This document shows, one piece after another, positions 4,713 through 31,919 of a DNA stretch of 40,408 nucleotides. The translations under genes and the position numbers were made by a program. This DNA is from a virus (Duplodnaviria; Caudoviricetes). Location: positions 1 to 40,408 of IMG/VR virus record IMGVR_UViG_3300032280_000539; one strand, 5' to 3'. The notes beneath the pieces were generated by a model. That model was not told the origin of the DNA and made no database searches. It saw only the letters and a list, made by a program, of their open reading frames with translations. Position 1 is the stretch's first letter; every line of letters begins with the position of its first letter.

Positions 4713-4828
4713 GTCAATAGTTATTTTTTCTGTGTAGTTATTTTTTCTGCGACACTCCATAAAAAAATTTCCCTAATGTCGCATACTCCTGTATAGTTGG
4801 TCTTACCACAAAGAAAGGGGTTGCCCGA

Positions 4829-5347
4829 ATGGGTATGGATGTTTATGGGAAGAACCCGAAGTCAGAGGTTGGCACTTACTTCCGTAGGAATGTATGGGGC
4901 TGGCATCCACTTTGGGACTATGTAGAGAATCAGCACCCAGAGATTGCGGAGTTGGTCGAACACGCTCACTCAAATTCTGGAGATGGACTTGGCGCTAGGA
5001 ATAGCAAAAAGTTAGCCAAACTTTTGATGGACGACTTCACCTCTGGAAAAGTTGCCGAGTATGTCGCCGAGCGAAACAAGCAACTTTCCGAATTGCCATT
5101 CGAGGAATGCCGACTCTGCGAGGGGTCTGGAATCCGAACTGACCAGATTGGCAAGAGTGCTGGACAGCACAAGAAAGAACTTGACCCAGACATCTCTATT
5201 ATCGTTGGTCGCACCAAAGGTTGGTGCAATGGCTGTAATGGAATTGGCAAGGTCGAGGATTGGGCAACCAACTACTACCTAGAGCCAGATGATGTAAAAG
5301 AGTTCGCTGACTTTTTGGCAGAGTGTGGTGGCTTCGAGATTTGCTAA
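4829..5347 (+). CDS. Hypothetical protein with DnaJ-type CxxCxGxG zinc finger
   Basis: CRLCEGSG and CNGCNGIG; AAAGGGG SD. Confidence 0.75.
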   Translation: MGMDVYGKNPKSEVGTYFRRNVWGWHPLWDYVENQHPEIAELVEHAHSNSGDGLGARNSKKLAKLLMDDFTSGKVAEYVAERNKQLSELPFEECRLCEGSGIRTDQIGKSAGQHKKELDPDISIIVGRTKGWCNGCNGIGKVEDWATNYYLEPDDVKEFADFLAECGGFEIC

Positions 5348-5392
5348 TCCCCCATTAGCAAACACAACCTGAGCAAGTTGTAAAACTGCTCA
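5341..5392 (+). ncRNA. 3' structured element: C5-loop hairpin followed by H-type pseudoknot
   Basis: TTGCTAAT-CCCCC-ATTAGCAA; ACAAC/GTTGT stem with loop TGAGCA pairing to downstream TGCTCA. Confidence 0.5.
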
Positions 5393-5549
5393 CCAACTTT
5401 TTATGGGGCAATAGTTATTTTTTCTGGTAAATCTTCCGTTACCATTTCGTTATAAACTTTTTATGGAAACGATTTGACAAGTGGCAAAAAGTCTGGTTTA
5501 CTCTAGGGGTAGCAAACGCTACGACACAACACACGAAAGGGGTAGCCAA

Positions 5550-6170
5550 ATGGCAACCACAGCAACACCTAAGTTAGTAGGCAAGGCACTCTACCTAGAG
5601 TTGGTAGCAGACCCTACTATGGATTCAGACAAGATTCGCTCGCTAGTTGGTTGGTATGGCGACAAGGCAGTAAAGCAGATTATCGTCTTTCCGCAGTATC
5701 AGGACGACACAGGCAAGATTTACGAGCCAGCCATTATGACCAGAATTGTGTCACCACACAGCCCAAAGGCACAATGGGATAGGGATATTATGGAAAGCAG
5801 AGGGCGACTAAAGCCAGCAGAGCCAACAGACCCAGATTCATACCACAAGGACTATGTGGACTACAAGACCTACTCAAAAGCAGAGTGGGACGAATTGACT
5901 GACAGAGAAAAGCACGATTCCAGAGTAAGGTCGCTTGACCTACTGCTTCGCTCAAAGATTATTAGTTCGTCTTACGAGGGCGAGGGTGTTGAGCGAGCAG
6001 AGGTAGCAGGGCAGGGTTGGGTAGTTCGTGACAACAAGCCATTCTCGGTAGAAACTACTGACCAAGACCTAATGGAAGTTCACAGGGATTGGAAAACACC
6101 ACAGGCAGTTATTCGCCGAATAAATAAAGTTCGTGGAACACTTGACAAGTTCCCCGAAAAACTAGCATAA
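5550..6170 (+). CDS. Hypothetical protein (start revised from 5481)
   Basis: GAAAGGGG SD before ATG 5550; TTGACA upstream. Confidence 0.7.
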   Translation: MATTATPKLVGKALYLELVADPTMDSDKIRSLVGWYGDKAVKQIIVFPQYQDDTGKIYEPAIMTRIVSPHSPKAQWDRDIMESRGRLKPAEPTDPDSYHKDYVDYKTYSKAEWDELTDREKHDSRVRSLDLLLRSKIISSSYEGEGVERAEVAGQGWVVRDNKPFSVETTDQDLMEVHRDWKTPQAVIRRINKVRGTLDKFPEKLA

Positions 6171-6206
6171 TTCACTTAGATACGACACAACGAAAGAGGG
6201 AAACCA

Positions 6207-7271
6207 ATGTATCTCAAAAAAGTAGTCGCAGAGGCGACAGCACCAGTTCTAGCCACACTTGATTATGACAAGTTGGTTGAGCAACTAAGCACCAGCGTTA
6301 CCTACGCCAGCGTGGGAGTTACGACTTCGATTCTGGACGACCTACTTCCAACAGCAGGTCGAGCCACTATCCGAGCCAAGTCTGGTTCTGGTTCTGGTTC
6401 TACCACAGCCACTAAACTAGAGGACGAAGCAGAGCCAGTTCGACTAGAGGAAACTATGGAATCCACGACAGCACTAGAGGGTGAGGAATCTTACCCACGA
6501 CCTAATGGCGACCTTTACTATGGGCGCAAGTGGGGCGAGAATACTGATGTCGAGGTTCTACGCAAAGCCAGAGAAGCCAACCAGTTCGTAATGCTTTATG
6601 GCAACGCGGGGACAGGAAAGACTGCTATGGTCGAGGCTGCTTTTCCAGAGGAACTTTATACGATTATCGGTTCTGGCGATACAGAGGTTGCCGACCTAGT
6701 TGGTTCTTATGTCCAAACCCCAAGCGGAAAGTTCGAGTGGGTGGACGGAGTTTTGACCAAGAGCGCTATCGAGGGCAAAGTTCTACTGATTGACGAAATT
6801 GGTCTGATTGACCCAAAGGTTCTGGCAGTTGTCTATGGACTAATGGACGGACGAAAAGAGTTGGTCATTACCCAGAATCCAGAGCGAGGCACTATCAAGG
6901 CACAAGAGGGTTTTTATGTTGTTTCGGCAACCAACCCAAATGTGGCAGGTGTTCGTTTGAGCGAGGCACTTCTATCTCGATTCACCATTCAGGCAGAACT
7001 GACTACTGATTGGGGACTTGCCAAGAAACTTGGAGTGCCACAGACAGCGGTTGTCGCCAGCCAGAATCTTGCAAAGAAAATGGAAAATGGTGAAACCAGT
7101 TGGTCGCCACAAATGCGTGAACTTCTAGCGTTTCGTGACCTAGCCAAAATCTTTGGAACTAAGTGGGCAGTCCAAAACTTGCTTGCTTCCGCACCAGAGA
7201 TTGACAGACCAGTTGCAAGTGATGTCTTTACCAGAGTGTTCGGAGAGGCAATTCTTCCAGCGAAGATTTAG
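6207..7271 (+). CDS. MoxR/CbbQ/NirQ-family AAA+ ATPase
   Basis: Walker A GNAGTGKT, Walker B LLIDE, SATNP, ALLSRF. Confidence 0.9.
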   Translation: MYLKKVVAEATAPVLATLDYDKLVEQLSTSVTYASVGVTTSILDDLLPTAGRATIRAKSGSGSGSTTATKLEDEAEPVRLEETMESTTALEGEESYPRPNGDLYYGRKWGENTDVEVLRKAREANQFVMLYGNAGTGKTAMVEAAFPEELYTIIGSGDTEVADLVGSYVQTPSGKFEWVDGVLTKSAIEGKVLLIDEIGLIDPKVLAVVYGLMDGRKELVITQNPERGTIKAQEGFYVVSATNPNVAGVRLSEALLSRFTIQAELTTDWGLAKKLGVPQTAVVASQNLAKKMENGETSWSPQMRELLAFRDLAKIFGTKWAVQNLLASAPEIDRPVASDVFTRVFGEAILPAKI

Positions 7272-7395
7272 TGGTAGTTGTGTCCCACTAAAAAAGTGGG
7301 GGAGTGTCAAAAAGTTTTTTTGGAAATGGACTTGACACTCCCCAACACTTATGGTTTACTAGACACAAGACAAAGCCAGATGAAAGGGAAAGCAA

Positions 7396-9261
7396 ATGGC
7401 ACACTACAAAGTAAAAGGGAAGTCAAGACTTACCAGTCGCACAGCGACAACCAATCCAGAGTGGTTGGCAGTATGTTCACAGATTGGTCGCCTAGTAAAC
7501 GATTGGTCTTGGAGAAGTGACCTAGCGGTTTATGGTGGAGAAGATTCTGCCGAGGGTCAAGCAGTCGCCGCTTTTTATTCAGACATAGCCGAGATTGAGA
7601 TAAACATTCCAAAGGCTTTCGGAGAGGCAATACCAGCCAATCTGGTTGGAAACCTATGCGACAGGGCAACTCAATACGAGTTCCCAATGGTCACAGGAAT
7701 CCTATTCCACGAAGCGTTACACGCTCGCCACACGAATTGGGACATTCCAAGATTGCTAGAGGCACTTGACCAGACAGAGAGCCAAGCCTTTATGTTGCTA
7801 GAGGAATCTCGTATCGAGGCAAAGGGTGTCAAAGAGCGACCAGAAAATCGCCTATTCCTACGCACTTCCGCTTTGGAAATGGCGTTGGAAGATGTAAACA
7901 GCCAGACCCTAGAGAGCGTGGGTAGCGACCTATGGCAGACAGCGAACCTAGCAGGTCTGTCCATTTCCAGAGTGGATTCAGGTGTCCTAGAGGTCGCCGA
8001 CATTCGAGAGATTTACGACTTGGTTGTTTCGGTTATGGGCAAGGAATTGTTTGACGAACTACGCAAAGTTTGGATTGAGTTTCAGTCACTAAGCGTTCCA
8101 CAGATTGAGCGAGCGATTGAGTTGGCTAAGAGGTGGGTCGAGTTGCTACGAGAGGCAGACCCAGAGGGCGAGCCTAATGGTGGCGGTCACGCTTTCGGAG
8201 AGCCAGACGAATCTGGCGAGGGCGAGGGCGAGGGCGACAGCGAGGGCAAGTCTGGCGAGGGCAGGTCTGGCGTTATGAAGAAACTAATTGAGCAGTTGTC
8301 TGATAGTGCTTTCGATACAGAACTCAATGCCAATGATTCTCTAGGCGACCAAGAAACCAAAGAGAAGTGGGACGAGGAAGTAAAGGCTCGCCAGCGTGAA
8401 GCCAAGAACACGAACTCACGCAAGGCACAAGCCAAAGAGGTCTTTCACAAAGAACACAACCAAGAGGGCGGTAATGGTTCAGGGTCGAGAGTGGACACAC
8501 GCAGACAGCCCACAGGTGCAGAGCGAGCGAGTGCAGTCCAGATTGCCAAGATGTTAGACAAGGCAAAGTATCGTGAGCGTTCAGTTCACACCCGAAAGAC
8601 CCAAGCACCAATGGGCAAACTGATTATGCGAAACGCTATCCAGAATCAGGCGTTGGAATCTATGGGCAAGCGTGGCGACTTGCCAGCGTGGAAGTCCAAG
8701 AGCCGAAAGCACACAGACGACCCGACACTAAGGCTCGGAGTTATGGTGGACATTTCAGGTTCTATGGGTTCGGCTATGGAATCTATGGGACAGACGGCGT
8801 GGATTATGTCCGAGGCAGGTCGCAGGATTCAGGCAGAAACCGCAATGATTTATTACGGAAGCGGAATCTTCCCAACGCTAAAGCGTGGACAGCGATTGTC
8901 CGAGGTGACGATTTACACCGCACCAGACGGAACAGAAAAGTTTGCCGAGGCGTTCGAGGCACTTGACGGCGAACTTGGATTGACTTTCGGGGACGGCGTG
9001 AGGATGTTGGTTATCGTTTCAGACGGCAATTACACACCGAGCCAGACCGAGAGAGCCAAGCAGATTCTCGCAGAGTGCAAAACTAACGGCGTGGCAGTTC
9101 TATGGATTACACCGAAGAACTGCTACTCATACGGAGCAAAGGAAATTATTTCGAGTTCGGCGTGGGGAGTTCACTTGGACGACCTAGACACCGCCCAGAT
9201 TGCCACGCTAGTCGGAAAGTCGGCGAGCGAAGCATTAGCGAGGGTGGGAACACTCACCTAA
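7396..9261 (+). CDS. VWA-domain protein with N-terminal HExxH motif (CobT/NorD-like MoxR partner)
   Basis: HEALH, LEESRIE, acidic Gly linker, MIDAS DISGSM and VSDG. Confidence 0.85.
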   Translation: MAHYKVKGKSRLTSRTATTNPEWLAVCSQIGRLVNDWSWRSDLAVYGGEDSAEGQAVAAFYSDIAEIEINIPKAFGEAIPANLVGNLCDRATQYEFPMVTGILFHEALHARHTNWDIPRLLEALDQTESQAFMLLEESRIEAKGVKERPENRLFLRTSALEMALEDVNSQTLESVGSDLWQTANLAGLSISRVDSGVLEVADIREIYDLVVSVMGKELFDELRKVWIEFQSLSVPQIERAIELAKRWVELLREADPEGEPNGGGHAFGEPDESGEGEGEGDSEGKSGEGRSGVMKKLIEQLSDSAFDTELNANDSLGDQETKEKWDEEVKARQREAKNTNSRKAQAKEVFHKEHNQEGGNGSGSRVDTRRQPTGAERASAVQIAKMLDKAKYRERSVHTRKTQAPMGKLIMRNAIQNQALESMGKRGDLPAWKSKSRKHTDDPTLRLGVMVDISGSMGSAMESMGQTAWIMSEAGRRIQAETAMIYYGSGIFPTLKRGQRLSEVTIYTAPDGTEKFAEAFEALDGELGLTFGDGVRMLVIVSDGNYTPSQTERAKQILAECKTNGVAVLWITPKNCYSYGAKEIISSSAWGVHLDDLDTAQIATLVGKSASEALARVGTLT

Positions 9262-9270
9262 GCCCAACGG

Positions 9271-9394
9271 ATTGCCTACCCAGAGGTTGAGCGAACCCAG
9301 AAGTTACCCCCCTTTCTTCTGACCCTAGTTCCCAACGGATAGGTAATAGAAGCCCCTACCAACACTTTCCCCCCTTTAGGTTGGTAGGGGTTTC
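9271..9394 (+). ncRNA. Candidate sRNA/3' UTR with two C-rich anti-SD loops
   Basis: Loop TTACCCCCCTTT (9304-9315) on CAGAAG/CTTCTG stem; loop ACTTTCCCCCCTTTAG (9364-9379) on a 15-bp stem. Confidence 0.55.
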
Positions 9395-9502
9395 GCCTTT
9401 CTGCCAGCCCCAAAATCGTGACAAGTCAGTTTCAGGATCCGGCACCAGGTTCCGCCGGACTGCCCAACTTTTTACGAGTCATAAAATGTCCAAGACCAAT
9501 CT

Positions 9503-9526
9503 CCAGACCCAGACCCAGACCCAGAC
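9503..9526 (+). repeat. Hexamer tandem repeat (CCAGAC)x4
   Basis: Directly visible just upstream of the 15-mer at 9531. Confidence 0.9.
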
Positions 9527-9657
9527 CCCATAGTTATTTTTTCTGTGGAGAGTTATGAGTTTGTTATGTAGCAGAGTTGCCCATACCCACAAGTTACATT
9601 AGGATTGGAGTAACCAATCAGGGTGAAAAAGAAGTAGCCCAGAAAGAAAGGGGCGAA

Positions 9658-10008
9658 ATGGCTAAGGTCGTTTCTCCAGCAACCCAAGAGGTTGCTACGA
9701 CAACTCCAGCAGTTGTCAAGGTTTCACGAAAAGTCGTGGAACTAATCAACGAACTCTCAGAGGTTCGTGCTATCGCTAACTCGGCAGATGCCAGAGTTGA
9801 GGAATTGCGTAAAGCAATCTTCGCCAAGGTCGGCAAGGCTGACCAAATCCTTATCCACAACAGCATTGAGGTCGCTCGCATTATCGAGAGCAACCCAGAG
9901 CGTCTAAGCGAGGAATTTCTAAAAGCGAATTTCCCAGACGCATACGAGGCTTCTGTGAAGCCACGCCAGCAGTTCACCATTCGCTCGGTAACACGCCAAG
10001 CGAAGTAA
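9658..10008 (+). CDS. Hypothetical coiled-coil protein, paralog family with 12743 and 19814 (start revised from 9577)
   Basis: L.EVRA...L, L.HN.IE.A, FPDAYEA. Confidence 0.75.
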   Translation: MAKVVSPATQEVATTTPAVVKVSRKVVELINELSEVRAIANSADARVEELRKAIFAKVGKADQILIHNSIEVARIIESNPERLSEEFLKANFPDAYEASVKPRQQFTIRSVTRQAK

Positions 10009-10156
10009 CCAGAAAGGGGCAGGGCGAAAGCCCTGTCCTTTTCTCACACCAACACCAATAGTTATTTTTTCTGACAAGATTCAACATTCCGTAAAAAGAT
10101 TTTCAAAATGTCAGAGAGTTGTGGTTGAATAGATACAACAAACAGAAGGGAACAAA

Positions 10157-10354
10157 GTGGGTTCAGGAATCAACAGCGTAGAGGTCGAGCGTGAGTTCGC
10201 CTGTAAGGACTGCGGTTGGGAAGGTCTTGCCACAGGCACGACTGACGACTATCAGGCTTTGCTAACTGCGGAGTGCCAGAATTGTAAATACATAATGGAA
10301 ATAGACCTTGATGCCGAGCGTGAACACGAACGAGTGTTCGGCGACAGGGATTAG
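10157..10354 (+). CDS. Zn-ribbon protein, tandem paralog of 10369
   Basis: GSGI...CxxC...TDD...ECxxC. Confidence 0.7.
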   Translation: MGSGINSVEVEREFACKDCGWEGLATGTTDDYQALLTAECQNCKYIMEIDLDAEREHERVFGDRD

Positions 10355-10368
10355 GAAAGGGAGTAAAA

Positions 10369-10632
10369 ATGTCCAGCAATTACCCAGAAGGCTCAATGCG
10401 TGGGTCAGGTATCTATTCACAGGAAATTCAGTATGACAAGTTCTTGTGTGATGGGTGCGATAAAGAAAACCCCGAGGGCGACACAGCGACAGACGATTGG
10501 GGCAACTACTCAATCGAGTGCGAGTTCTGTGGACACACACAGACAGAGAGTAGTGTCTCCGAGGACGAGTATGACGCAAAAGCAGATTCCGACTATGACA
10601 CTTGGCGTGACGAGCAAGACGAGAGGGACTAG
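10369..10632 (+). CDS. Acidic Zn-ribbon protein
   Basis: GSGI...CDGC...TDDW...ECEFC. Confidence 0.7.
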   Translation: MSSNYPEGSMRGSGIYSQEIQYDKFLCDGCDKENPEGDTATDDWGNYSIECEFCGHTQTESSVSEDEYDAKADSDYDTWRDEQDERD

Positions 10633-10636
10633 AAAA

Positions 10637-10831
10637 ATGGAAACCAAATACTGCTACGACTGCGAGGCAGACCTAACACCAGAGAACACCAGCGAGTTCG
10701 GCGGGCTTGACAGCGGAAACCTACACGCTTCACGCTCGGTTGGATTCAACACCACAGTCGAGATGTTTACCAAGTGTGACGACTGCCACAACGCCGACAT
10801 TGACAGGCACTTAGAAAATCAATACAACTAA
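10637..10831 (+). CDS. Small Cys protein (start revised from 10400)
   Basis: METKYCYDC...KCDDC; follows stop at 10632. Confidence 0.6.
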   Translation: METKYCYDCEADLTPENTSEFGGLDSGNLHASRSVGFNTTVEMFTKCDDCHNADIDRHLENQYN

Positions 10832-10973
10832 ACACGACTGCCCAATAATTCACGACAGCGAGCGTGAGTTGGGCAGTTACTTTTCCACCAACTCAATAGT
10901 TATTTTTTCTGCGGTTTGTGACACGCCGAAAAAGTTATTACGAATGTCACGATAAAGGAGTAAAGTTTTATCT

Positions 10974-11273
10974 ATGAAGAAAACAATTAGCACATCAGAC
11001 CTAGCAACTAAAGTTTGTAAGAGAGGTCACATAGGGGATTACATTCTCCGAAGCAATGGCAGTTCGGCTTGTAAGTCTTGCGTCCGTATAAGCGTGGTTC
11101 GATACAACAGAGGGACAAGCGAAATCAAGCGTGAAAGACTGATAGAGGATTCACAGGAGCGCCTGACAGACCTAGAGAAACGAATTCAGGGGCTCAAGGT
11201 GGAATTGGAACTTTCCGAAACAGAATACGAGTTTCTAAAAAAGAGGCTTGCGATTCTGGAAACAACCAAGTAA
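10974..11273 (+). CDS. Hypothetical protein with CKRGH/CxxC motif and coiled coil
   Basis: CKRGH...CKSC; heptad-rich C-terminus. Confidence 0.65.
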   Translation: MKKTISTSDLATKVCKRGHIGDYILRSNGSSACKSCVRISVVRYNRGTSEIKRERLIEDSQERLTDLEKRIQGLKVELELSETEYEFLKKRLAILETTK

Positions 11274-11301
11274 AATCAAACCAACACGAAAGGGGTGCGA
11301 A

Positions 11302-11649
11302 ATGGAAACACCACTCGCATTAGAGGACATCACAGGGCTTGCCCTGACTACGCTCGGCGTGCTTATCGAGCAGTATGTAAAAGAGGGCTACGCCGACCCG
11401 ACTATGTATCAGGCACTCAAAGCGAGCACGGCGCTCGCAACACAATTCAAGGCACGGCTTGAGTATGACGGCGAGAGCAACACGGAGTTGCTTGACGGCG
11501 TGACGCAGTTGCTAGTGGACTTAGAGGTGACGGCTATGGAATGTGGCGAGGTGGTAAACCGAATCATTGACGAGCACGGCTTGCCTATTGACAAAGATAC
11601 TTGGCTTAGAACCGACTGCGACCACGCAGACGGCGAGGACGGCGAGTAG
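11302..11649 (+). CDS. Hypothetical protein (start revised from 11248)
   Basis: GAAAGGGG SD before ATG 11302. Confidence 0.7.
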   Translation: METPLALEDITGLALTTLGVLIEQYVKEGYADPTMYQALKASTALATQFKARLEYDGESNTELLDGVTQLLVDLEVTAMECGEVVNRIIDEHGLPIDKDTWLRTDCDHADGEDGE

Positions 11650-11855
11650 TGGGACGGGTAGTGATTCGCCTGAACATAGACCAAGACATTCCAACGGGCG
11701 AGGTTGGAGACCAAATGGTGACGGACTACATTGACCGGCTAGCCCAGACGGACGGCTTGCTGACCCTGCGTGAGGTAGGGTGGGACTTCTACGAGGACGA
11801 GAACCCTGACGGCTCGCTCAAACCGATTGACCTAGAGACGGGCGAGCGACTATGA
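11649..11855 (+). CDS. Hypothetical protein
   Basis: Start/stop overlaps with both neighbours. Confidence 0.6.
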   Translation: MGRVVIRLNIDQDIPTGEVGDQMVTDYIDRLAQTDGLLTLREVGWDFYEDENPDGSLKPIDLETGERL

Positions 11856-12166
11856 CGGGTATGAGATTTAGCGAAGCCCTCGGCGAGGTCGTCAGAGAGC
11901 GACGGCTCGCCCTGGGGTTGACCCTGCGCAAGGTAGCCTCAACGGGTTACGTCTCTATGGGACACCTGTCGGATGTGGAGACGGGTCGTAAAGAGGGGTC
12001 GTCGTCGTTCATCAACGGGGTAGCCAACGGGTTGGGCGTAGAGGCAAGCGACCTGATTATTCAGGCTGGCTTCCGAATGGCTGGCGTGAAAGTGCCAGAC
12101 ACTCCTGAAAGCCTGTTTGAGCCTGGGAGCGTGTGGGCGAATCAGTATGCTGACCTGAAAAGGTAA
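11852..12166 (+). CDS. XRE-family HTH regulator, ClgR/PopR-like
   Basis: LGEVVRERR...TLRKVA...VSMGHLSDVETGRKEGSS...VPDTP. Confidence 0.75.
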   Translation: MTGMRFSEALGEVVRERRLALGLTLRKVASTGYVSMGHLSDVETGRKEGSSSFINGVANGLGVEASDLIIQAGFRMAGVKVPDTPESLFEPGSVWANQYADLKR

Positions 12167-12360
12167 GGTAAACCTAAGTAGCCCAAGAGGTTAGGTAAGC
12201 CTTACTTAACTTCTTACTTTTCCCAATAGTTATTTTTTCTGGCAGGTCTAAAATGCAACACGATGAACTTGCCAAAACTTCAAACCCTGATAGGCTGTAT
12301 ACATCAGCCAACAGGGTTGATAGAAGTCCTAGCCCCAGAGCTAGGCAAAAAGGGGAAACT

Positions 12361-12549
12361 ATGTTTCAGATTTTCGACCTTGAGGGCGAGCGTATCTCTT
12401 GGACACCTGCGGGCTTCGCAAGCCGAGCCGAGGCGTTGGCTTGGCTCAAGAAGAACGCCGAGCCTTGGGGCGAAGAACCACCATTCCGAATTGCCGAGTC
12501 GCTTGATGAGGAATATGTCGAATTCACCTACTACAATGAGCGACACTAA
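12361..12549 (+). CDS. Hypothetical protein (start revised from 12253)
   Basis: AAAGGGG SD, hairpin leader, terminator after. Confidence 0.65.
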   Translation: MFQIFDLEGERISWTPAGFASRAEALAWLKKNAEPWGEEPPFRIAESLDEEYVEFTYYNERH

Positions 12550-12742
12550 CACCAAAACACGAACCCCCCTGTTTGGGCAGGGGGGTTTCTTTTTGCCGAA
12601 CACCAATAGTTATTTTTTCTGATGTTTCTGCGAAATACCGAGAAATTAGATTGCGACTTGTAGGCATTTAGACTAGGCTGTTCACATCAGCCAAAAGGGT
12701 TGGTAAAAGTCCCAGACACAGGGCTGGGCAAAAGGGGTAAAA

Positions 12743-14234: not shown

Positions 14235-14450
14235 ATGTTTACAGCAAGAAGATTCGGATTGGCAGTTCTAACTTTGCCGTTCGCAGGTCTGGCTTATGGT
14301 GCGGTCTATTTCGGACTAGCATTGGTCGCTAACACCTACGCGAGTTTAGGTCTATACCTAAGCAACCTCACCGCTCTAGCGTTCGGCTGGATAATCGCGG
14401 TAACTTTCTCAAAGCAAATTCTAGACTTCATCAACAAGATTGGAGAGTGA
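14235..14450 (+). CDS. Small membrane protein (start revised from 14205)
   Basis: Two hydrophobic segments; GAAAGGGG SD. Confidence 0.7.
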   Translation: MFTARRFGLAVLTLPFAGLAYGAVYFGLALVANTYASLGLYLSNLTALAFGWIIAVTFSKQILDFINKIGE

Positions 14451-14451
14451 G

Positions 14452-14529
14452 ATGAGAAACTTCCTAAAAAGAATTGGGCTAGTCAAGCCCGCTGGCAGAC
14501 ACGCCAAGCGAGGCAGACACGCCAAGTAG
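14452..14529 (+). CDS. 25-aa basic peptide MRNFLKRIGLVKPAGRHAKRGRHAK (not in ORF track)
   Basis: ATG one base after upstream stop, GGAG upstream; GRHAK twice. Confidence 0.5.
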   Translation: MRNFLKRIGLVKPAGRHAKRGRHAK

Positions 14530-14530
14530 G

Positions 14531-14581
14531 GTTGTCCCCCACAACACGGGGCTAGGTGAGTTCCCCCACTCGCCTAGCCCC
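14531..14581 (+). ncRNA. Two tandem hairpins with C5 loops (second doubles as terminator)
   Basis: GTTGT-CCCCC-ACAAC and GGGGCTAGGTGAGT-TCCCCC-ACTCGCCTAGCCCC. Confidence 0.5.
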
Positions 14582-14722
14582 ATTTCTTTTTTTGCGGGTT
14601 GCTCGCGAATAGTTATTTTTTCTGGAAAGTTGTAAACACCTAGCGCGATGAGTTGCGTAACGCGGTGGATAGTGTAAACTACAAGTAGTTACAAACAAAC
14701 ACACAACACTAAGGGGATACAA

Positions 14723-15124
14723 ATGGACACAACAAACACCACTCGCGCGTTCGAGATTACTTCAAACTGCACCTGCCAAGTGTTCGAGAGCGAAGATGAG
14801 GACACCCTAATTCCAAGCAATGAATGTTTCGGTTGCTGGGAATATGACAAGGACAATTTCAAGTATGAGATTCTGAACCCTTGGCTGGAAGCAAATGGCT
14901 GGGATGAGGACACCATTGTTTATGTTTACAGCGGGAACATGAATTGGAACAAGGTCGCAGGTTGGACTAATGTTCGCGCGGGAGAAGCCATTGATTGCCT
15001 AACCCTACGCGGCGACTTCACCCTGCGCTACAAGTTGGATGGCAAGGACTTGACTTGCGTTCGCTCAAGCCATGATGAGTATGGCGCGCTATTCACTTTT
15101 AGCAAGGCGGAGGAAGTCGAATGA
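14723..15124 (+). CDS. Hypothetical protein
   Basis: AAGGGG SD; CxC, CxxC and SHD motifs. Confidence 0.75.
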   Translation: MDTTNTTRAFEITSNCTCQVFESEDEDTLIPSNECFGCWEYDKDNFKYEILNPWLEANGWDEDTIVYVYSGNMNWNKVAGWTNVRAGEAIDCLTLRGDFTLRYKLDGKDLTCVRSSHDEYGALFTFSKAEEVE

Positions 15125-15228
15125 TGAGTTGCCCACACGCGGAGATTCGGTGGCTGGACTGCGAGGAACATGGCAGGGACTGCACTGAAAGAGTCTGCGT
15201 AAACTGCGGTGAAAGCGTCACTGCCTAA
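15121..15228 (+). CDS. Small Cys/His protein (35 aa; not in ORF track)
   Basis: ATGA overlap; MMSCPH...CEEH...C...CVNC. Confidence 0.55.
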   Translation: MMSCPHAEIRWLDCEEHGRDCTERVCVNCGESVTA

Positions 15229-15370
15229 CAGAAGCCCCTGCGGAAACGCGGGGGTTTTCTCGCGCGCTAATCCATAGTTATTTTTTCTGTAAGTTTGATT
15301 AGTCGGCGCTCGCAGGTTGCGCGTTTTTCTGGATTGCTATAAGATTGAGGCAACAAGAAAGGGGGCAGAG

Positions 15371-15565
15371 ATGCCTAGATACGCGGTTGAGGTTCAACTG
15401 AGTGGAAATGATGGAAACGCCTATGCGATTATGGGCGCGGTAAAGCGAGCGCTAAAAGAGGCGGGCGCTTCACGCGAGGAAGTCGAGCGCTACTTGACTG
15501 ATTCAATGAGTGGCGATTATGACAACTTGCTAAGGGTCGCAACAGATTGGGTGGAGGTGCGCTAA
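15371..15565 (+). CDS. Small phage protein of the DGNA(Y/F)AIMG type (start revised from 15317)
   Basis: LSGNDGNAYAIMGAVKRAL...SGDYDNLL. Confidence 0.75.
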   Translation: MPRYAVEVQLSGNDGNAYAIMGAVKRALKEAGASREEVERYLTDSMSGDYDNLLRVATDWVEVR

Positions 15566-15957
15566 TGGGTTCGAGAACAACTTGGAAGATTGTCACTAAT
15601 GATAGTGGCGCGGTAACTTGGCTTTATAGCCATTGGGGTGGAGGGAGCAAGTTCGATGACACACAGCGCGCGCTAATAAACGCGATGCCACGCTGGAGCG
15701 ATGCGACCTATGGAGCGCGCTCATTCATTAGCGCTATTGTTCGAGAGAATTGGAGCGACACCACAGGATTCGGAATTACAGCAACGCTGACAGATGCCGA
15801 ATGCCCGTTCGAGGAAAGTTACTTCAACGCGGTGATTGACTTTACAACTGAGCGCGTGACTTTTGGAAGTCGCGAGTGGAGTTTCGAAGAATTCATTGTT
15901 GCCGAGGATTGTAGTGAGGCGCTACAAGATGAGTATTATGAAGCGGAGTTTGCATAG
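15565..15957 (+). CDS. Hypothetical protein (LYSHWGG motif)
   Basis: TAATG coupling; MGSR...LYSHWGG. Confidence 0.7.
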   Translation: MGSRTTWKIVTNDSGAVTWLYSHWGGGSKFDDTQRALINAMPRWSDATYGARSFISAIVRENWSDTTGFGITATLTDAECPFEESYFNAVIDFTTERVTFGSREWSFEEFIVAEDCSEALQDEYYEAEFA

Positions 15958-16014
15958 AGTAGAGTTATAGAGTTCGAACGCGGGCTGAGCAAAAATGTTC
16001 GCCCGCTTCGACAC

Positions 16015-16094
16015 GCGCTAGAGTTACCCCCCTTCCTCTAGCGCCCGCGGGCAGTAGATTACCCCCTTTTTCTACTGCCCGCCCTTTTTTCTTT
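16015..16094 (+). ncRNA. Candidate sRNA/3' UTR with two anti-SD loops, ending in terminator
   Basis: GCGCTAGAG-TTACCCCCCTTC-CTCTAGCGC and GCGGGCAGTAGA-TTACCCCCTTTT-TCTACTGCCCGC then T-run. Confidence 0.6.
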
Positions 16095-16222
16095 TCAGGG
16101 CATAGTTATTTTTTCTGTAGCTTTTTACAAAAAACAAAGAAATGCGGGTCTGAGGTGTAGACTACTCATGTAGTCAGGAAGCCAAGGGGGTGGAGGACTA
16201 CAGAGAAAGGGCAGGGGTTCCA

Positions 16223-16561
16223 ATGGGACTTATTGCGAGCATCTATCGTTCAGATTACGACAGCGAGATGAATGTCTTTTATGGGAAAAGCAAGGTCACG
16301 CTAGTCAACGTGGAGGGGCCATTCAACCCGACTGAAGACGCTCCAGCAGCCAAGTTGATCCAAGGCTACAGGAACACAGCAATCATCGTGCCAGCAGACG
16401 ACAAGTTTGAGGGCGTTCAGATGAATGGCGGAACTTACGCTTCGACCAGCGACAGCCGTTTTCAGAGAGCAGTGGAGATGCTTTCGGGTGTTTCACACTT
16501 CGCCGTAGCAATTCACGACAGACGAGAGTCTTGGGAAGAGCACGAGCGATTCAGCAGATAA
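16223..16561 (+). CDS. Hypothetical protein (start revised from 16190)
   Basis: MNGGTYASTSDSRF...IHDR; cassette context. Confidence 0.7.
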   Translation: MGLIASIYRSDYDSEMNVFYGKSKVTLVNVEGPFNPTEDAPAAKLIQGYRNTAIIVPADDKFEGVQMNGGTYASTSDSRFQRAVEMLSGVSHFAVAIHDRRESWEEHERFSR

Positions 16562-16652
16562 CGAAAAATGGAAGCCCCTCTTCGGAGGGGTTTTCTCTTT
16601 ATACGATGAATAGTTATTTTTTCTGCCAGGTGTGCTGAACTTTTTACGGAAG

Positions 16653-16681
16653 TTGACAAGTTTGCCGGTTGATGCTAGATT
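16653..16681 (+). promoter_or_regulatory. sigma70/SigA-type promoter
   Basis: TTGACA-N17-TAGATT with extended TG. Confidence 0.8.
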
Positions 16682-16718
16682 TTACTTATCGGAAGTTCCG
16701 ATAGATAAGGGGGCAGAA

Positions 16719-17081
16719 ATGCCAAAGCACGCACTACTCGTAAAGGCAGACCTAAACTATGAAGGTCTTGACATCGCTGAGGGTGAACTAAAGAAACTCC
16801 AAACTGCGGTTGATGGTCTTATCCAGCCCGTAGACATTGGCGACACAGTTACTATGTGGGTGAACGAAGAGGGACTGCTACGCGGTGACTTGAAGCTAAA
16901 CCACCTAGCCACAATGCTGATGGAGGAGATTGGCTACAAGACTCCGATTATGGGGGATGTTGTCTTTACAGGCGCACCAGATGAAGATGGCAACACGATG
17001 GAATTCCCAGCTCAAGCAAGCTACCAGCTAATAGAGCTGATTGACTCCTTCAAGGCTGTGATGGAACAGGCCATCGAATAA
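16719..17081 (+). CDS. DUF3846-like protein (start revised from 16632)
   Basis: LQTAVDGLIQ...MWVNEEGL...N..AT...GDVVFTG. Confidence 0.75.
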   Translation: MPKHALLVKADLNYEGLDIAEGELKKLQTAVDGLIQPVDIGDTVTMWVNEEGLLRGDLKLNHLATMLMEEIGYKTPIMGDVVFTGAPDEDGNTMEFPAQASYQLIELIDSFKAVMEQAIE

Positions 17082-17099
17082 TCTAGCCGCAATAAAAAG

Positions 17100-17132
17100 T
17101 TATCCACAGGCTGTGTATAAGTCTGTGGATAA
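17100..17132. promoter_or_regulatory. DnaA-box cluster 1 (3 boxes)
   Basis: TTATCCACA 17100-17108, TGTGTATAA 17112-17120, TGTGGATAA 17124-17132. Confidence 0.75.
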
Positions 17133-17201
17133 TTTTTCTGCCGCAATGCTAATAGTTATAGTTATTTTTTCTGTAAATATAAAAACTTTTCACGGAAATT
17201 G

Positions 17202-17230
17202 TTGACAGATTTTCGCCCGGGCGCTAGACT
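17202..17230 (+). promoter_or_regulatory. sigma70/SigA-type promoter
   Basis: TTGACA-N17-TAGACT. Confidence 0.8.
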
Positions 17231-17257
17231 GATGTTATCAGTTGAAAGGGGAAGCAA

Positions 17258-17449
17258 ATGGCTTCAAAGTTGGAACTAGCGTGGACACCATTGAGCTACT
17301 ATGGCGCTCGGTATGTCGCAACCAGAAAGGTAAAGACCGGACATCTCTGGGACTTATACATCTGTCACGGCTGTGGCAAAGAGTGGAAGTCGTCAGCCAA
17401 AAAGATTGGACACACCCCGGCAGTCTGCGCCCGCAGACAGTTCGCATAG
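17258..17449 (+). CDS. Small basic Cys/His protein
   Basis: GAAAGGGG SD; CHGC...H....C. Confidence 0.65.
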   Translation: MASKLELAWTPLSYYGARYVATRKVKTGHLWDLYICHGCGKEWKSSAKKIGHTPAVCARRQFA

Positions 17450-17634
17450 TCCGGTAGAGAGAGCAACCGGGGAGGAAAATCTCCCCGGTTGTTTTCTTGT
17501 GCCGGGAAGATTGCTTTGTAGTTATTTTTTCTGGGTTACCCCCCCCGCGTGTCGAGTTGTGCTGCCCAGGTAAATGTATTACAGTTGTAACTGTAACCAG
17601 GACGCCAAGGGGGTAGAGGGTTACAGGAGACAAG

Positions 17635-17976
17635 ATGAACGACTACACCACCACCGACTTGGTTATTGACTTGGTAGACGCGGCTGGCTACGGAATCACT
17701 TGGGCAGACCAAGCTCACCTGGACGAGGATGCCCAGACCTACACCCTTGACTTGGACGAGGATGCCACCCTGGAAGCTGGCAAGCCCCAAGTCACGCTAA
17801 CCTTCCAAGCTATCCAAGACGCCCTGGCTAAGCTCGCCCAGGGCGGGATAGCTCACCAAGTAATCACCCAGGCTTGCCAGGTCGCCCTGGACTCACCAGA
17901 GGATGCCGACATTGACTCCGAGACAGCTGACTGCATCATCCAGGTAGCAGCGTTTGGGGAGGTAGTGTTCGGATAG
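17635..17976 (+). CDS. Acidic hypothetical protein
   Basis: Ends DIDSETADCIIQVAAFGEVVFG; lies between the DnaA-box clusters. Confidence 0.7.
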   Translation: MNDYTTTDLVIDLVDAAGYGITWADQAHLDEDAQTYTLDLDEDATLEAGKPQVTLTFQAIQDALAKLAQGGIAHQVITQACQVALDSPEDADIDSETADCIIQVAAFGEVVFG

Positions 17977-18014
17977 CCTGAACACCCTGGAACTCCCTGG
18001 TCCTGGCCGGGGAG

Positions 18015-18068
18015 TTTTCCACAGCCTGTGGAAAGTTATCCACACCCTGTGGATACCCCTGTGGATAA
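18015..18068. promoter_or_regulatory. DnaA-box cluster 2 (5 boxes, 2 perfect)
   Basis: TTTTCCACA 18015, TGTGGAAAG 18027, TTATCCACA 18036, TGTGGATAC 18048, TGTGGATAA 18060. Confidence 0.75.
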
Positions 18069-18182
18069 CTTTGACCCCCAAAATAGTTATTTTTTCTGCG
18101 AGTTATGCGGGCGTTACAAAGTGTGTTGCGTTATTGCGGTAAAAGTGCTAGAGTTTGAGCAACAAACAAGAAGGGGGCAGAA

Positions 18183-18425
18183 ATGCTAAACACACCAGAC
18201 CAAGAGGCGAAGTTGGTTTTCGCTATGACTATGAAGTTGGGCGGGGGAGAAGACAACTACTCCGAGTATGCCAAAGCCGAGATTTGGGCAGAGTGCGCTC
18301 GTAACCCTAGGCTTCGCAACCTAGCCCTGCAATATATTGTGGGCAACAGCAACAGGGCAGAGCTGAACCTATACAGACTGCACACCGCAATTGCTGAAAT
18401 TTTCTTTGAGAAGTCGGGGAGCTGA
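18183..18425 (+). CDS. Hypothetical protein
   Basis: AAGGGGG SD and promoter upstream. Confidence 0.65.
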   Translation: MLNTPDQEAKLVFAMTMKLGGGEDNYSEYAKAEIWAECARNPRLRNLALQYIVGNSNRAELNLYRLHTAIAEIFFEKSGS

Positions 18426-18900
18426 TACCAATGGCAGTAATCATTCGTGAACTTACAGAGTGCTACAAGTGTGACACGCGGATTATGGCGGAGCGTGGAA
18501 TTGTCCACCCGCTGTGCGGTGAGTGTCAAGAAAGTTTTGACGCTTGGTTTGCTAGGCAGATAGCGGAGATAGATAGTGTTCGCAAAGCCTAGAACTATTA
18601 CGCTAGACAACAGGACTAGAAGGCGCATAGTCGAAATGGTTGCGGTAAGTCGGTTGATGCTTCAACACCGAAACTACAAACTTGGACTGGTCGCCACAAT
18701 TTTCTATGGGCTAACCATTGGTGTTGGCTACTTGCTGGTAATGGGAATACTCAAGGCTGGGTGGTTTGCCCTAGCTACCCCGCTGTTGTTGGTTGCGGTG
18801 GTTTCTTGGCTAGTCGCTAGGTGGATTACTAAAGTTGAAATGGTCAAGCCACTCAAACTTTCTATAGTGCCGTAATTTTCAAACACGGTTTTTTTGACTG

Positions 18901-18991
18901 CGTGCTTTGAATTTTTTAGTTTAAAAATTTACCTGCTCGCAAAAAATCCACTCGTGCTTTTAAAAATTTGATTTGAAAATTTATCTGCTCG
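18901..18991 (+). repeat. AT-rich imperfect direct repeat, 2 x 39 bp at 52-bp period
   Basis: CGTGCTTT...AAAATTTA(C/T)CTGCTCG at 18901-18939 and 18953-18991. Confidence 0.75.
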
Positions 18992-19133
18992 TCAATTTTT
19001 TAGTGGCGCTTCTAAGTAGATAGTTATTTTTTCTGACAATTTGTAGTTAGGTTTCTTGCGTTGCTATTTAATCCTGAGTGTGCTAAGCTGGTGGAACCAG
19101 CCCGAGGTGGGTTGAAAGTCCAAGGGGGACAAA

Positions 19134-19640
19134 ATGTCTGTATCATTTTCGCCAGCGTTCGTAGAGGGCGTAGCCGTTCCATCTGTAGTTGTTTGCGGTT
19201 GTGGCAACTTCCGCTCCGAAGATTTCCCTAGCTACGCGGTGGCTTACCTAGCCCTACCCGCGATCACCTCAGACTGCGGTGATCTTTACTGCGTTGACAC
19301 CAAGTTTATCGAACCTGCCGTTTCCGAGCCTGAGGTCAATGTGTCCAACATCACCGCTGTAGAGCTTTTGGACAACCTTGGCATTCTTGTAGATGAGGAC
19401 TTTTCTGAGCGTTGCTTGGGGTCTATCTCTGCCACCGACCTAAAGGGTCGTGTCCTTATGGCACTTGCTCTACTTCCAGAGGATGAGGGTATGCCAGCAC
19501 ATCAAGCAGGCAACACTATGTTTGGGCTACAAGTTTGGACTGCTCCACGCCCAGCAGGGCACACCCAGAATGTTCTTCACCGACTTCTTGAGGTTGCGGA
19601 GTTCGCTCTAGCTCAAGGGCGTGATGTTGATTGGGGCTAA
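19134..19640 (+). CDS. Hypothetical protein
   Basis: AAGGGGG SD; EVNVSN..A..LL..LG. Confidence 0.75.
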   Translation: MSVSFSPAFVEGVAVPSVVVCGCGNFRSEDFPSYAVAYLALPAITSDCGDLYCVDTKFIEPAVSEPEVNVSNITAVELLDNLGILVDEDFSERCLGSISATDLKGRVLMALALLPEDEGMPAHQAGNTMFGLQVWTAPRPAGHTQNVLHRLLEVAEFALAQGRDVDWG

Positions 19641-19813
19641 GCCTCAGCTAGATCCATTCTTTTCATAGCTCATAAAAAGTTTTCAGCTCAGCCGGAGCCG
19701 ATAGTTATTTTTTCTGTAAGTTGTAGCAACACCGAGAATGAACTTGCGTGATTCTCAGAACTAGAGTAAGCTAGCCGTAGCTAGCCAGAGTGGTTAGCAG
19801 AAAAGGGAAGAAA

Positions 19814-20164
19814 ATGTCAGTAGCAACCAAGGCGCAGGTCGCCACCAGGGCAACAAAGGCAACAAAGATTACCGTTGAGCAGGTCAAGCAGTTGATCGAA
19901 GTTCGTGCGGAGATTACCCGTCTAGAAGCTTTGAAGTCTGAATTGACCAAAAAGGTCGAAGCAGTTTTCGGAGTGGACAAGGACAACAAGGTTTCGGAGT
20001 TCGATACCTTGACCCACCACAACATTGAGTTCGCCAAGTTGGACTGGATCTCACGCAAAGGCGTTGACACCGAGAAACTAGCTAGGGATTTCCCGGAAGC
20101 TTACGAAGCTTGTTTCGACCCACAGCACACCACTTACAGCGTTGTGCGGGCGTTGTTCAAGTAA
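19814..20164 (+). CDS. Coiled-coil protein, close paralog of 12743 (start revised from 19790)
   Basis: VEQVKQLIEVRAEITRLE...FGVDK...LARDFPEAYEAC...LFK. Confidence 0.8.
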   Translation: MSVATKAQVATRATKATKITVEQVKQLIEVRAEITRLEALKSELTKKVEAVFGVDKDNKVSEFDTLTHHNIEFAKLDWISRKGVDTEKLARDFPEAYEACFDPQHTTYSVVRALFK

Positions 20165-20293
20165 GCCACCAAGCGAAAGCCCCAGCCCGGGAGGGTTGGG
20201 GTTTTTCTTTTTGCGGGCGGTTGGTTGCGGTAGTTATTTTTTCTGTGGGTTTGAAAAAACTTTTCCTGATCGCTTGTGTTTTTTGGGTGGGTG

Positions 20294-20775
20294 TGCTAAG
20301 CTGATTGTATCAGCCAAAGGGTTGATAAAAGTCCTAGACTGAGTGCTAGGCGAATAGGGGAAACCAATGCGCAACTACTACTACACGGCCTGGGAATCTA
20401 AGGAAGACCGAATTGCTAGGGGCTGGGACAAGCCAAGCATAAATGGCTGGGTTCAGGCACAGAGCATTGACCAAGCCGAAGCGATCATTCGCAGTCACGG
20501 GTTTGTTCGAGACGCGATCACTTTCTACACCAAAGCTCAGAGAAAGAATTTCCGCAGCTACCTTAAGGATCGACCTGGAACACTGATCTAGCTCGGATCA
20601 AAATCTCCCTGGCCCTGGCTCGGGGCTGGGGATTTTTTTGATCCCGCTTGATAGTTATTTTTTCTGAGAGTTTGAAAATTTTTTTGCGGATCGCTTGTAT
20701 TTGTCGGGTAGGTTTGCTAAGCTGATTGTATCAGCCAAAGGGTTGATAAAAGTCCTAGACTGAGTGCTAGGCGAA
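20294..20775 (+). repeat. Identical 61-bp -10/leader duplication
   Basis: TGCTAAGCTGATTGTATCAGCC...GCTAGGCGAA at 20294-20354 and 20715-20775. Confidence 0.9.
20367..20591 (+). CDS. Hypothetical protein
   Basis: Cassette gene. Confidence 0.7.
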   Translation: MRNYYYTAWESKEDRIARGWDKPSINGWVQAQSIDQAEAIIRSHGFVRDAITFYTKAQRKNFRSYLKDRPGTLI

Positions 20776-20787
20776 AAGGGGTTACAA

Positions 20788-21039
20788 ATGTTTGAGATCT
20801 CAAGCACCGCTGCCGGACACCTAGTTGTCCGCAACCTAGAGTCCACCAATGGGCTTGTTGCCACCCACTACAACGCAGATACCGACATCCGCAGCGTTTT
20901 GGCTGCATCCACCAACAACTGGAACCTAACGGGCGATCAGGAACTCCAACTACTCAATGCCCTAGCCAGTTTCTTCGGGGTCAGACTTACCCTAGGAGAT
21001 ACCGCTAGGTCGTTAGGCTATCCCGCCCTAGTGGACTAG
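20788..21039 (+). CDS. Hypothetical protein (start revised from 20764)
   Basis: AAAAGGGG SD before ATG 20788. Confidence 0.7.
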   Translation: MFEISSTAAGHLVVRNLESTNGLVATHYNADTDIRSVLAASTNNWNLTGDQELQLLNALASFFGVRLTLGDTARSLGYPALVD

Positions 21040-21203
21040 GTATGATCAGGAAAGCCCCGCCTAGTGCGGGGTTTTTCTTTTGCTGCCGTTTGATAGTTAT
21101 TTTTTCTTTGGGTTTAGGTAAGTTGTCACGGTGAATTGTATTTTTGTGGTGGAGTGTGTTATGCTGAATACATCAGCAAGGAGCTGAGAGATCGAAGGGG
21201 AAG

Positions 21204-21452
21204 ATGTCCGAAATCAAGTGGACAAGAGTAAATGACGGTATCAGACTTAGTTATGTTGGATCTAATGGAGCGGTGATTGTCCGAAGGCAAATAGGATCAA
21301 AACTTTATCACGGCAGAGATCGCCAATACGCCAAAAGCTATTATTACCGTCTAAACAACAGCTCATACTACAGCTTGAAAGATGCCAAGCAAGCCGCCGA
21401 GGATGAGGCTGCAGGAGTTGTGCGGGTATCTATGTTCACCAAGCGCAGCTGA
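21204..21452 (+). CDS. Basic hypothetical protein
   Basis: Cassette gene; SLKDAKQAAE. Confidence 0.7.
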   Translation: MSEIKWTRVNDGIRLSYVGSNGAVIVRRQIGSKLYHGRDRQYAKSYYYRLNNSSYYSLKDAKQAAEDEAAGVVRVSMFTKRS

Positions 21453-21639
21453 GAGATCGCTTTACAGCTCCCTAGCACGGCTAGGGAGTTTCGCTTTTGT
21501 GCGGGGTAAAGAGTGGTGTAGTTATTTTTTCTGCAGGCTGTGGGAACTTTATGCGGGTAGTTGTATTTTTCTTCTTGTTGTGCTATGCTGATTACATCAG
21601 CAAAGAGCTGATACCTAAAACTCAAAAGGGGATGTTCAA

Positions 21640-21840
21640 ATGAACACATCAGTTATCACTAACGAGCTAACTCTCATCTACTCAGAGATGAAGGATGCCG
21701 AAGGGGGCATGTTCACCTACAAGATAGTAAGAACTTTCACGGATGAAAGTTCCGAAAGCGAGTGGATCACCAAGATGACAAAGCAGGCGGAAAATGTCCC
21801 CGAAGACTGGGGGCTCTGCTACTCGTTCAAAAGGGTATAG
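21640..21840 (+). CDS. Hypothetical protein
   Basis: Cassette gene with AAAAGGGG SD. Confidence 0.65.
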   Translation: MNTSVITNELTLIYSEMKDAEGGMFTYKIVRTFTDESSESEWITKMTKQAENVPEDWGLCYSFKRV

Positions 21841-21993
21841 CTCCCGACAGAAACCCCGTCAGAAATGGCGGGGTTTTTGTTTTTCGACACGCCGATAAAA
21901 AGTTTTCAAATTGACTTGACAAAGTCTGCGGTTATGTGATAAGCTGATTCCATCAGCAGATAGCTGACAGACAAAAAACGAAGGGGCAACAAA

Positions 21994-22137
21994 ATGAAGG
22001 TAACAGTTCTAAAGAATGGTCAGACCACCGACTACTACTTCGATCCAGAGCACTACCAAACAGCTTTCAGCTCATACACCGAGATGGCAAAGTCTGGAGA
22101 GATTGACAGCTTCAGCATTACCGTAATGAGCAAGTAG
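21994..22137 (+). CDS. 47-aa protein MKVTVLKNGQ... (not in ORF track)
   Basis: TTGACA promoter, hairpin leader, GAAGGGG SD, terminator after. Confidence 0.7.
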   Translation: MKVTVLKNGQTTDYYFDPEHYQTAFSSYTEMAKSGEIDSFSITVMSK

Positions 22138-22321
22138 CTCAGACAAAGATTGCCTCCCGCTTCGGCGGGGGGTTTTCTTTTTGCGGGGAAGTTTTTTGGA
22201 AGTCTCAGAAAAAATAACTATCAGCTCCCGACACGCTCACGGGTTTAGTTGCGAATTATTTGGTTGGTCTGTTATGCTGGCATAGCCAGCTCCAAGGGGG
22301 AGTGGCAGAAGGGGTTTCAAA

Positions 22322-31610: not shown

Positions 31611-31611
31611 A

Positions 31612-31902: not shown

Positions 31903-31919
31903 CAGATAGGGAGCCCATT

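Follow-up and report, generated by a model that had tools for sequence, protein, structure and literature searches.

The virus record IMGVR_UViG_3300032280_000539 (Duplodnaviria; Caudoviricetes) is a 40-kb contig with an estimated completeness of 24%, and all of its 40,408 nucleotides, called the window below, were analysed. Its genes include those for an endolysin, an AAA/VWA pair, a catalase-peroxidase, a terminase, a portal and a ferritin-like protein. The subject here is an array of 24 expression units on the + strand (4718..22783), each of which consists of a terminator, a nearly invariant 15-base word, a sigmaA-type promoter, a ribosome site and one to four mostly small genes. The word occupies a helically phased position upstream of the promoters, differs between phage lineages and coincides with crossovers between related genomes.

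An exact search of the whole window returned 24 matches to the word, 23 on the + strand and one on the - strand (22206). Allowing up to two mismatches added only the copy at 21094, whose last base is changed from G to T, so that the total of 25 given in a first-pass annotation of this sequence holds once that single-mismatch copy is included, and its statement that 24 copies share one orientation is borne out. By chance 0.00–0.09 copies are expected, and shuffled sequences contained at most one. As also claimed, no copy lies beyond 4.7–22.2 kb; the nearest matches outside 4.7–22.3 kb carry three mismatches. The first unit is headed by a tandem pair (4718 and 4735; 4718..4749, +) with gaps to the -10 of 60 and 43 nt. 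The co-oriented copies that follow span 5412..21533 (+) and begin at 5412, 9531, 10059, 10897, 12227, 12607, 13155, 13597, 14123, 14610, 15275, 16103, 16611, 17159, 17519, 18084, 19021, 19702, 20231, 20652, 21094 (one mismatch) and 21519. The last copy (22206..22220, -) is flipped and lies between a + strand terminator and a + strand promoter, 51 nt from the -10, which is the modal gap. None of the copies overlaps any of the 36 gene calls in and around the array, in agreement with the always intergenic location first described, and the term single-gene cassettes fits 18 of the 24 units, the other six holding two to four genes. From copy to copy the flanking sequence is unrelated (median identity 0.30 over 50 nt downstream and 0.27 over 30 nt upstream), so that near-perfect conservation amid divergent flanks was correctly noted. 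The base 5' of the word is A in 20 of 25 copies and G in the other five; the conserved site is thus one purine (R) plus the 15-mer. It lacks dyad symmetry, its end lies 62–123 nt from the start codon, and Rfam gave no match in the window.

The position of the word relative to predicted promoters was assessed on 155 majority-strand copies from 11 records, which reduce to 122 non-redundant unit heads; a promoter was called in 111 of these, and the start was taken as 7 nt past the -10 hexamer. We observed a gap of 49–56 nt between word and -10 in 75 of the 111 heads, which puts the word centre near -71. In the window this holds for 18 of 23 scored copies (20652, a near-duplicate of 20231, was left out), and the earlier placement some tens of bp upstream of a -35 element is therefore right and can be drawn tighter. 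The 33 off-peak gaps cluster near 42 and 61 nt, one helical turn off (p = 0.00015 for phasing at 10 bp and 0.0044 at 11 bp, against a decaying null, n = 33). A -35 element lies 20–40 nt from the word in 81% of heads, compared with 24% in shuffles. The distance from the upstream terminator tail to the word varies widely (mostly 3–36 nt; 78 heads), in contrast to the narrow range on the promoter side, which ties the word to the promoter, and the idea that it is a second terminator was rejected on the same grounds. Among flipped copies, the last one of the window and one in the related record G019 keep a gap of 51 nt, and most others lack a good promoter or have a longer gap.

A second element was seen in the same heads. 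A TGTC-type sequence lies exactly 10 nt before the -10 in 36 cases among the 122 heads (21 of them strict TGTCRG), compared with 0.1 in shuffles, and this layout matches the consensus tGTCgg(N10)tA(N3)T given for PafBC in the accessible text of PMC8635444. The window has two clean cases (TGTC..-N10-TAnnnT), one at 10945..10966 (+) and one at 20702; the strict pattern was not seen in four cultured relatives.

The word was then compared across related records. The two complete relatives, G002 (154 kb) and G005 (152 kb), have all of their copies, 17 and 16 respectively, in a single stretch of about 16 kb. The version of the word is particular to a lineage and hardly varies within a genome, with changes coordinated across 11–25 copies per genome. 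Its 13-base core reads TAGTTATTTTTTC in the window, G001, G006 and G018, TATTTATTTTTTG in G002, G005 and G033, TATTTATTTTTTC in G004 and G019, and TATCCACTTTTTR in G014. Three further relatives (G009, G010 and G016; terminase identity 83–86%) have an array of the same kind that lacks such a word. In the window, G002, G004, G005 and G033 the last copy is flipped, and internal flipped copies occur in G002 and G019. A lone copy is also found within the endolysin gene of G002 (56715) and G005 (105823), where the codons permit it; the window and nine other relatives use different codons at that site. In the Actinomycetia phage DSL-LC01 (22500-44000) many unit heads share a long word that ends in the -10 (TCTAAAGATGTTATA...) and have no -35; this word overlaps the promoter and is a different solution from the upstream word. 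A pattern scan of viral contigs found clusters of copies in only three records, all already compared, among the matches listed (80 of 111 loci), and phage GodonK had no comparable word among its top repeated words. A literature search, with subscription journals and supplements outside its reach, found no paper describing these words. The main text of the DSL-LC01 paper does not contain "repeat", "motif" or "promoter", and a Microbacterium phage survey, as far as its accessible text goes, covers genomes only up to 97.7 kb.

The tight, phased spacing, the invariant G and C positions amid free flanks and the lineage-wide switches together suggest a sequence-specific protein that acts on the polymerase from upstream. 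The specific protein site proposed in the first-pass annotation is in this respect supported by the fixed, helically phased position and the coordinated substitutions, although no helix-turn-helix (HTH) candidate follows the word.

Exchange of whole units at the word was assessed by alignment of relatives. G001 and G018 are 96–98% identical over 10 kb with a single break, a unit of 643 bp, and identity switches inside 19 bp beginning at the word. A like crossover inside the word separates G005 from G033 (504 bp) and G018 from G006 (two units, 956 bp). In four pairwise alignments, six of 15 breaks lie at or beside the word, namely three independent indels, of which two appear in two alignments each, and a local divergence; the expectation that indel breakpoints in relatives would map to the motif thus holds for three clean unit indels but not for most other breakpoints. 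For strain contigs from the same study aligned to the window, 10 of 16 boundaries lie within 10 nt of a copy, compared with 6% of positions; these 16 were read by hand among the rows listed, and a further 246 pieces and 12 joints exist. Back-joints in these contigs involve strain differences or short sides. Because alignments tend to run through an identical word, the boundaries show where neighbours change and not which enzyme acts. Two adjacent units also carry a duplicated promoter-leader (20283-20360 and 20706-20780), and one strain contig lacks the 422 bp between the duplicates, which is an exchange away from the word. A search of five records, two of them complete, revealed no tyrosine recombinase. 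A serine resolvase is present in G002 and G015 and missing from G005 and G019, that is, present in one of two complete word-bearing genomes. An AAA_24 protein, annotated as "RecA-like DNA recombinase" in DSL-LC01 and in Microbacterium phage Zooman, occurs in the four large relatives. Short-homology recombination would be the simplest reading of exchange at the word.

Five cultured Microbacterium phages (Zooman, Big4, A3Wally, Cece and Pumpernickel) carry a repeated word of their own in the left-end region. In Zooman each repeat holds 14 copies of a bipartite word of 23 bases, four of them flipped, and the unique 158 kb hold none; the word approximates CTTTAGTGC-N4-ACTCTTGCGT, with up to three mismatches allowed. 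In the first 17–20 kb of each genome, Big4, A3Wally and Cece show the Zooman-type word and Pumpernickel its own version. Zooman has an exact direct terminal repeat of 17,079 bp, which contains, in order, a gene annotated as small terminase in Cece, an endolysin homologous to that at 710 in the window, spaced small genes, a homologue of the window protein at 26174 and a CTAG-rich gap (15.5 CTAG per kb). The window keeps the order of endolysin, array and CTAG-rich gap, its own non-coding gap (22784..23603) having 23 CTAG per kb compared with 5.5 window-wide, and G002 has a homologue (42%) of Zooman's first repeat gene just upstream of endolysin and array. In a possible source run, contig depth is 36.8 over 4000-20323 and 24.4 on the next contig, and the ratio of 1.51 is closer to the value for a repeat with its end near 23.4 kb (1.56) than to that for an end near 26.8 kb (1.21). 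From synteny and contig depth, the array is likely the early region of a long terminal repeat, with the gap at 22784..23603 as its likely right boundary, a placement that rests on synteny and one contig-level depth ratio (depth up to 23.9 kb) that is not independent of the window. A non-coding element of about 45 bp (23416-23460) is kept in all close relatives that cover the gap, word-less ones included, and is a candidate end-cutting or packaging signal. GC skew goes from positive to negative near 22 kb, at the array end, while genes remain on the + strand, and it flattens at the corresponding place in G002 and G005.

These observations lead us to a tentative preference, held at somewhat less than even confidence, for the word as the site of a phage regulator that likely represses the early block as one unit, and secondarily as a crossover point like that of the early promoter–stem-loop (PeSL) cassettes of T4-type phages. 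On infection, host sigmaA polymerase would transcribe each unit from its own strong promoter to its own terminator, perhaps with the help of host PafBC at some units. At a later stage each word, some seven helical turns upstream of the predicted start, would be occupied by a lineage-specific protein. Sitting on the helix face that also carries the polymerase alpha subunit, this protein would hold or block the polymerase, as phi29 p4 does from -71.5. Repression is favoured because the promoters look self-sufficient, most of them already showing good -35 and -10 matches, because sister phages manage without the word, and because p4 represses from -71.5. Exchanges inside the word would add or remove whole units, likely through the RecA-like AAA_24 recombinase of the phage, and would fall there because the word is the sole stretch identical in all unit heads.

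Several observations weigh against this reading. Promoters and starts are predicted, with matrices trained on the same regions though not on position. Some copies have no promoter, namely those inside the endolysin gene of G002 and G005 and several in cultured phages, and the terminal flipped copies of G002, G004, G005 and G019 have none behind them (scores 0.2–5.4). Word-to-promoter spacing is looser in the cultured phages (25–93 nt), their 11-bp phasing is weak (p = 0.001 for 30 forward copies that have a promoter, 0.02 when reduced to 21 distinct values) and comes from hand-picked, non-independent values, and their word may not be homologous to that of the window. The other nine of the 15 breaks are gene swaps or indels away from the word. 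Finally, none of the four HTH proteins put forward as binders (2175, 11852, 24111 and 26174) tracks the word across relatives.

In individual terms, the protein at 2175 is not supported as binder since it has no match in G001, which has the same word. That at 24111 is missing from word-bearing G004 and G019 and present in word-less G009, G010, G016 and DSL-LC01. The protein at 11852, which we take to be ClgR-like, occurs in word-less relatives; in this protein the window falls together with G002 and word-less G010 rather than with G001, whose word is the same, and the recognition helices vary independently of the word. The protein at 26174 (26174..26791, +), with two HTH motifs and similarity to sigma70 region 4, occurs in every word-bearing record that spans its position, is missing from DSL-LC01 and is also present in word-less relatives, and its recognition helices are near-identical from the window to Zooman despite different words; it is a weak candidate, and we doubt that it is the binder. 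In cultured relatives the terminal repeat has its homologue (gp40 in Zooman) as final or near-final gene. In four cultured phages a copy of their word lies 2–9 nt from the -35 of this gene, which suggests autoregulation. Separately, a CGACACGCC-like word lies about 41–46 nt before the -10 in about one quarter of heads and is common to the window and cultured relatives, including the Zooman repeat; it is a possible target of the conserved 26174 protein. When the proteins of G002 were profiled over 12 other records, most of them partial, no gene followed the word among the matches listed, and protein atlas searches gave only "sigma70_r4/HTH" for 26174 and nothing for 5550.

The position of the word fits activation equally well, and this also counts against repression as the sign; we regard activation as nearly as likely. 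An activator with the same site and geometry, made very early or carried in the virion, would turn the block on in class I manner through the C-terminal domain of the alpha subunit (alphaCTD). Class I activators act from such upstream positions, and the centre near -71, the side peaks near -61 and -81 and the 10–11 bp phasing form the usual activator pattern. Activator positions are known to show helical periodicity (PMC11806353), and in 26 of the 122 heads a -26-type element occurs where a good -35 is lacking. As a complete account it still appears rather unlikely to us, since a good -35 match is seen in 90 of the 122 heads, arrays of this kind persist in word-less relatives and flipped copies hold the modal gap, which is awkward for an asymmetric activator. 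Alternatively, the words could mark the whole terminal repeat, with a bound protein that guides entry, shields the first-entering DNA or organises repeat duplication or packaging, the promoter spacing being a by-product. In line with this, the Zooman word is strictly confined to the repeat, promoter-less copies lie near both ends (a flipped last copy is about 250 bp from Zooman's end) and leave room for a repeat-wide role, the GC skew changes sign near 22 kb, and the array is depleted in 4-bp palindromes (no GTAC in 4718-22220 against about 41 expected, with CATG, GGCC, ACGT and TTAA depleted too). The phased spacing to the -10, however, requires a link to the polymerase, flipped copies occur inside the arrays of G002, G019 and cultured phages, and word-less arrays show a milder palindrome loss as well, whereas the Zooman repeat shows none, so that we consider this account unlikely. 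The internal flipped copies likewise argue against strict polarity and hence against the directional DNA-entry signal first suggested, though the array likely lies in a terminal repeat.

It is improbable that no dedicated protein is involved and that the word is an A/T-tract upstream element for the host alpha subunit, or for DNA bending, kept uniform by copying of unit heads: its T6 tract, phasing and tolerance to flipping would fit, but the fixed G and C positions with unrelated flanks and the coordinated changes over 11–25 copies per genome would not, and neither the G014 version nor the GC-rich word of the cultured phages is an A-tract. Least probable, in our view, is a word that is primarily an integron-like site for cassette gain, loss or shuffling. 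Clean crossovers inside the word and its near-invariance speak for it, and the recombination first proposed is to that extent seen in relatives; it is likely secondary and needs no integrase, given the recombinase distribution described above, the lack of dyad symmetry, the promoter phasing left unexplained and the comparison of Zooman with Big4, in which no clean unit indel at the word was seen. A broader version of the regulator hypothesis is that a large actinophage family marks the full length of its long terminal repeat with a word of its own, a lineage-specific protein coating the first-entering DNA and setting early transcription, discrimination of self from related phages in co-infection, and unit-swap points. 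We think this quite unlikely; if true, it would amount to stoperator-like identity control without lysogeny that doubles as a cassette system.

Other features of the contig bear on its affiliation and on individual units. The region from terminase large subunit to portal (29824..33680, +) puts it among large actinophages. The terminase is 72.7% identical to that of DSL-LC01 and 62–64% to those of large Microbacterium phages, and the host is therefore likely an actinobacterium; the host of DSL-LC01 is actinobacterial by prediction (PMC10611076, accessible text). Catalase-peroxidase (26811-29009) and ferritin-like, Dps-type (33682-34137) genes adjoin terminase and portal. Within the array, an AAA_5 ATPase and VWA-like gene pair (6207..9261, +) belongs to the 5550/AAA/VWA unit, in which a second upstream site, GTTAY-N6-GTTAT (5438..5453, +), lies between word and promoter. 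This tandem site occurs six times in G009, four times in G016 and twice in the window (5438 and 9552), is frequent at promoters of relatives without the 15-mer, and presumably resembles MtrA/GlnR-type boxes. Paralogous proteins of about 115 aa at 9658, 12743 and 19814 are each the sole gene of their unit; two of the three match phrog_1956, and one shows weak similarity to a RecE-like exonuclease family in its C-terminal part, as defined for that family. Clusters of 9-mers matching what we take to be the DnaA-box consensus lie just 5' of the copies at 17159 (three; 17100..17132) and 18084 (four; 18015..18068), directly upstream of unit heads, with an origin or host-state sensing as candidate roles; such 9-mers are also found in the repeats of Zooman (15346-15366), Big4 and A3Wally. 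The 4-bp palindromes AGCT and GATC come back after about 16–20 kb in the window.

For large lytic actinophages, little is understood of how early host-takeover genes are timed or of how the terminal repeats acquire unknown genes so rapidly. Both matters would be linked by a short word, particular to each lineage, that is probably a control site and at the same time an exchange point. What is new here is the probable placement of the array in a long terminal repeat, together with counterpart words in five cultured Microbacterium phages. Because Zooman has 14 copies per repeat and none elsewhere, the word can be tested at the bench, and with cultured counterparts on a laboratory host the binder, the sign of regulation and recombination become directly testable.

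Among known systems, the PeSL cassettes, as described in the accessible text of PMC2839356 and PMC4122927, share with the array an intergenic terminator and host-type early promoter heading ORFans in a variable region, and units gained or lost by exchange between heads. Here, too, a predicted host housekeeping-sigma promoter and a stem-loop terminator occupy the intergenic heads of ORFans, and units are gained or lost between heads in close relatives (three independent events, and strain contigs). PeSL conservation, however, extends across about 100 bp with the promoter at its centre (PMC2839356, PMC4122927), whereas in the array promoters and flanks are unrelated (identity about 0.3) and the shared part and crossover point is a short, invariant upstream word with lineage-specific versions. 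The p4 regulator of phi29 acts at the early A2c promoter from a site at -71.5 and represses through alphaCTD (PMC3445967, PMC11476376, accessible text); the word is likewise centred near -61, -71 or -82 with helical phasing, on starts predicted from the -10. Four p4 sites lie in one intergenic region, in contrast to about 24 separate promoters here, with a putative binder and sign.

The stoperators of Cluster A mycobacteriophages, with which the first-pass annotation compared the word, are more than 20 short, asymmetric intergenic sites mostly co-oriented with transcription (PMC9283540, accessible text), and the comparison is apt for many such sites in the window (24 of 25 oriented with transcription, with exceptions in most relatives). 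It fails in other respects, as stoperators are genome-wide, lose function on reversal and belong to temperate phages (PMC9283540), whereas the word is fixed to a downstream promoter, is sometimes flipped, is confined to one region (about 16 kb in two complete relatives, the repeat in Zooman) and occurs without a tyrosine integrase in the records searched. Integron-like systems differ in that no cognate tyrosine or serine recombinase was found in all carriers. The start-associated (SAS), extended start-associated (ESAS) and Cluster EC motifs of actinobacteriophages are also conserved, repeated motifs of unknown function before small genes, but the SAS lies at the ribosome site and the EC motif 22–30 bp before the start codon (PMC7302621, accessible text), while the word is upstream of the promoter, neither at nor next to the ribosome binding site. 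In its operation the word array resembles a PeSL array equipped with a p4- or stoperator-like site, but it is a member of neither family.

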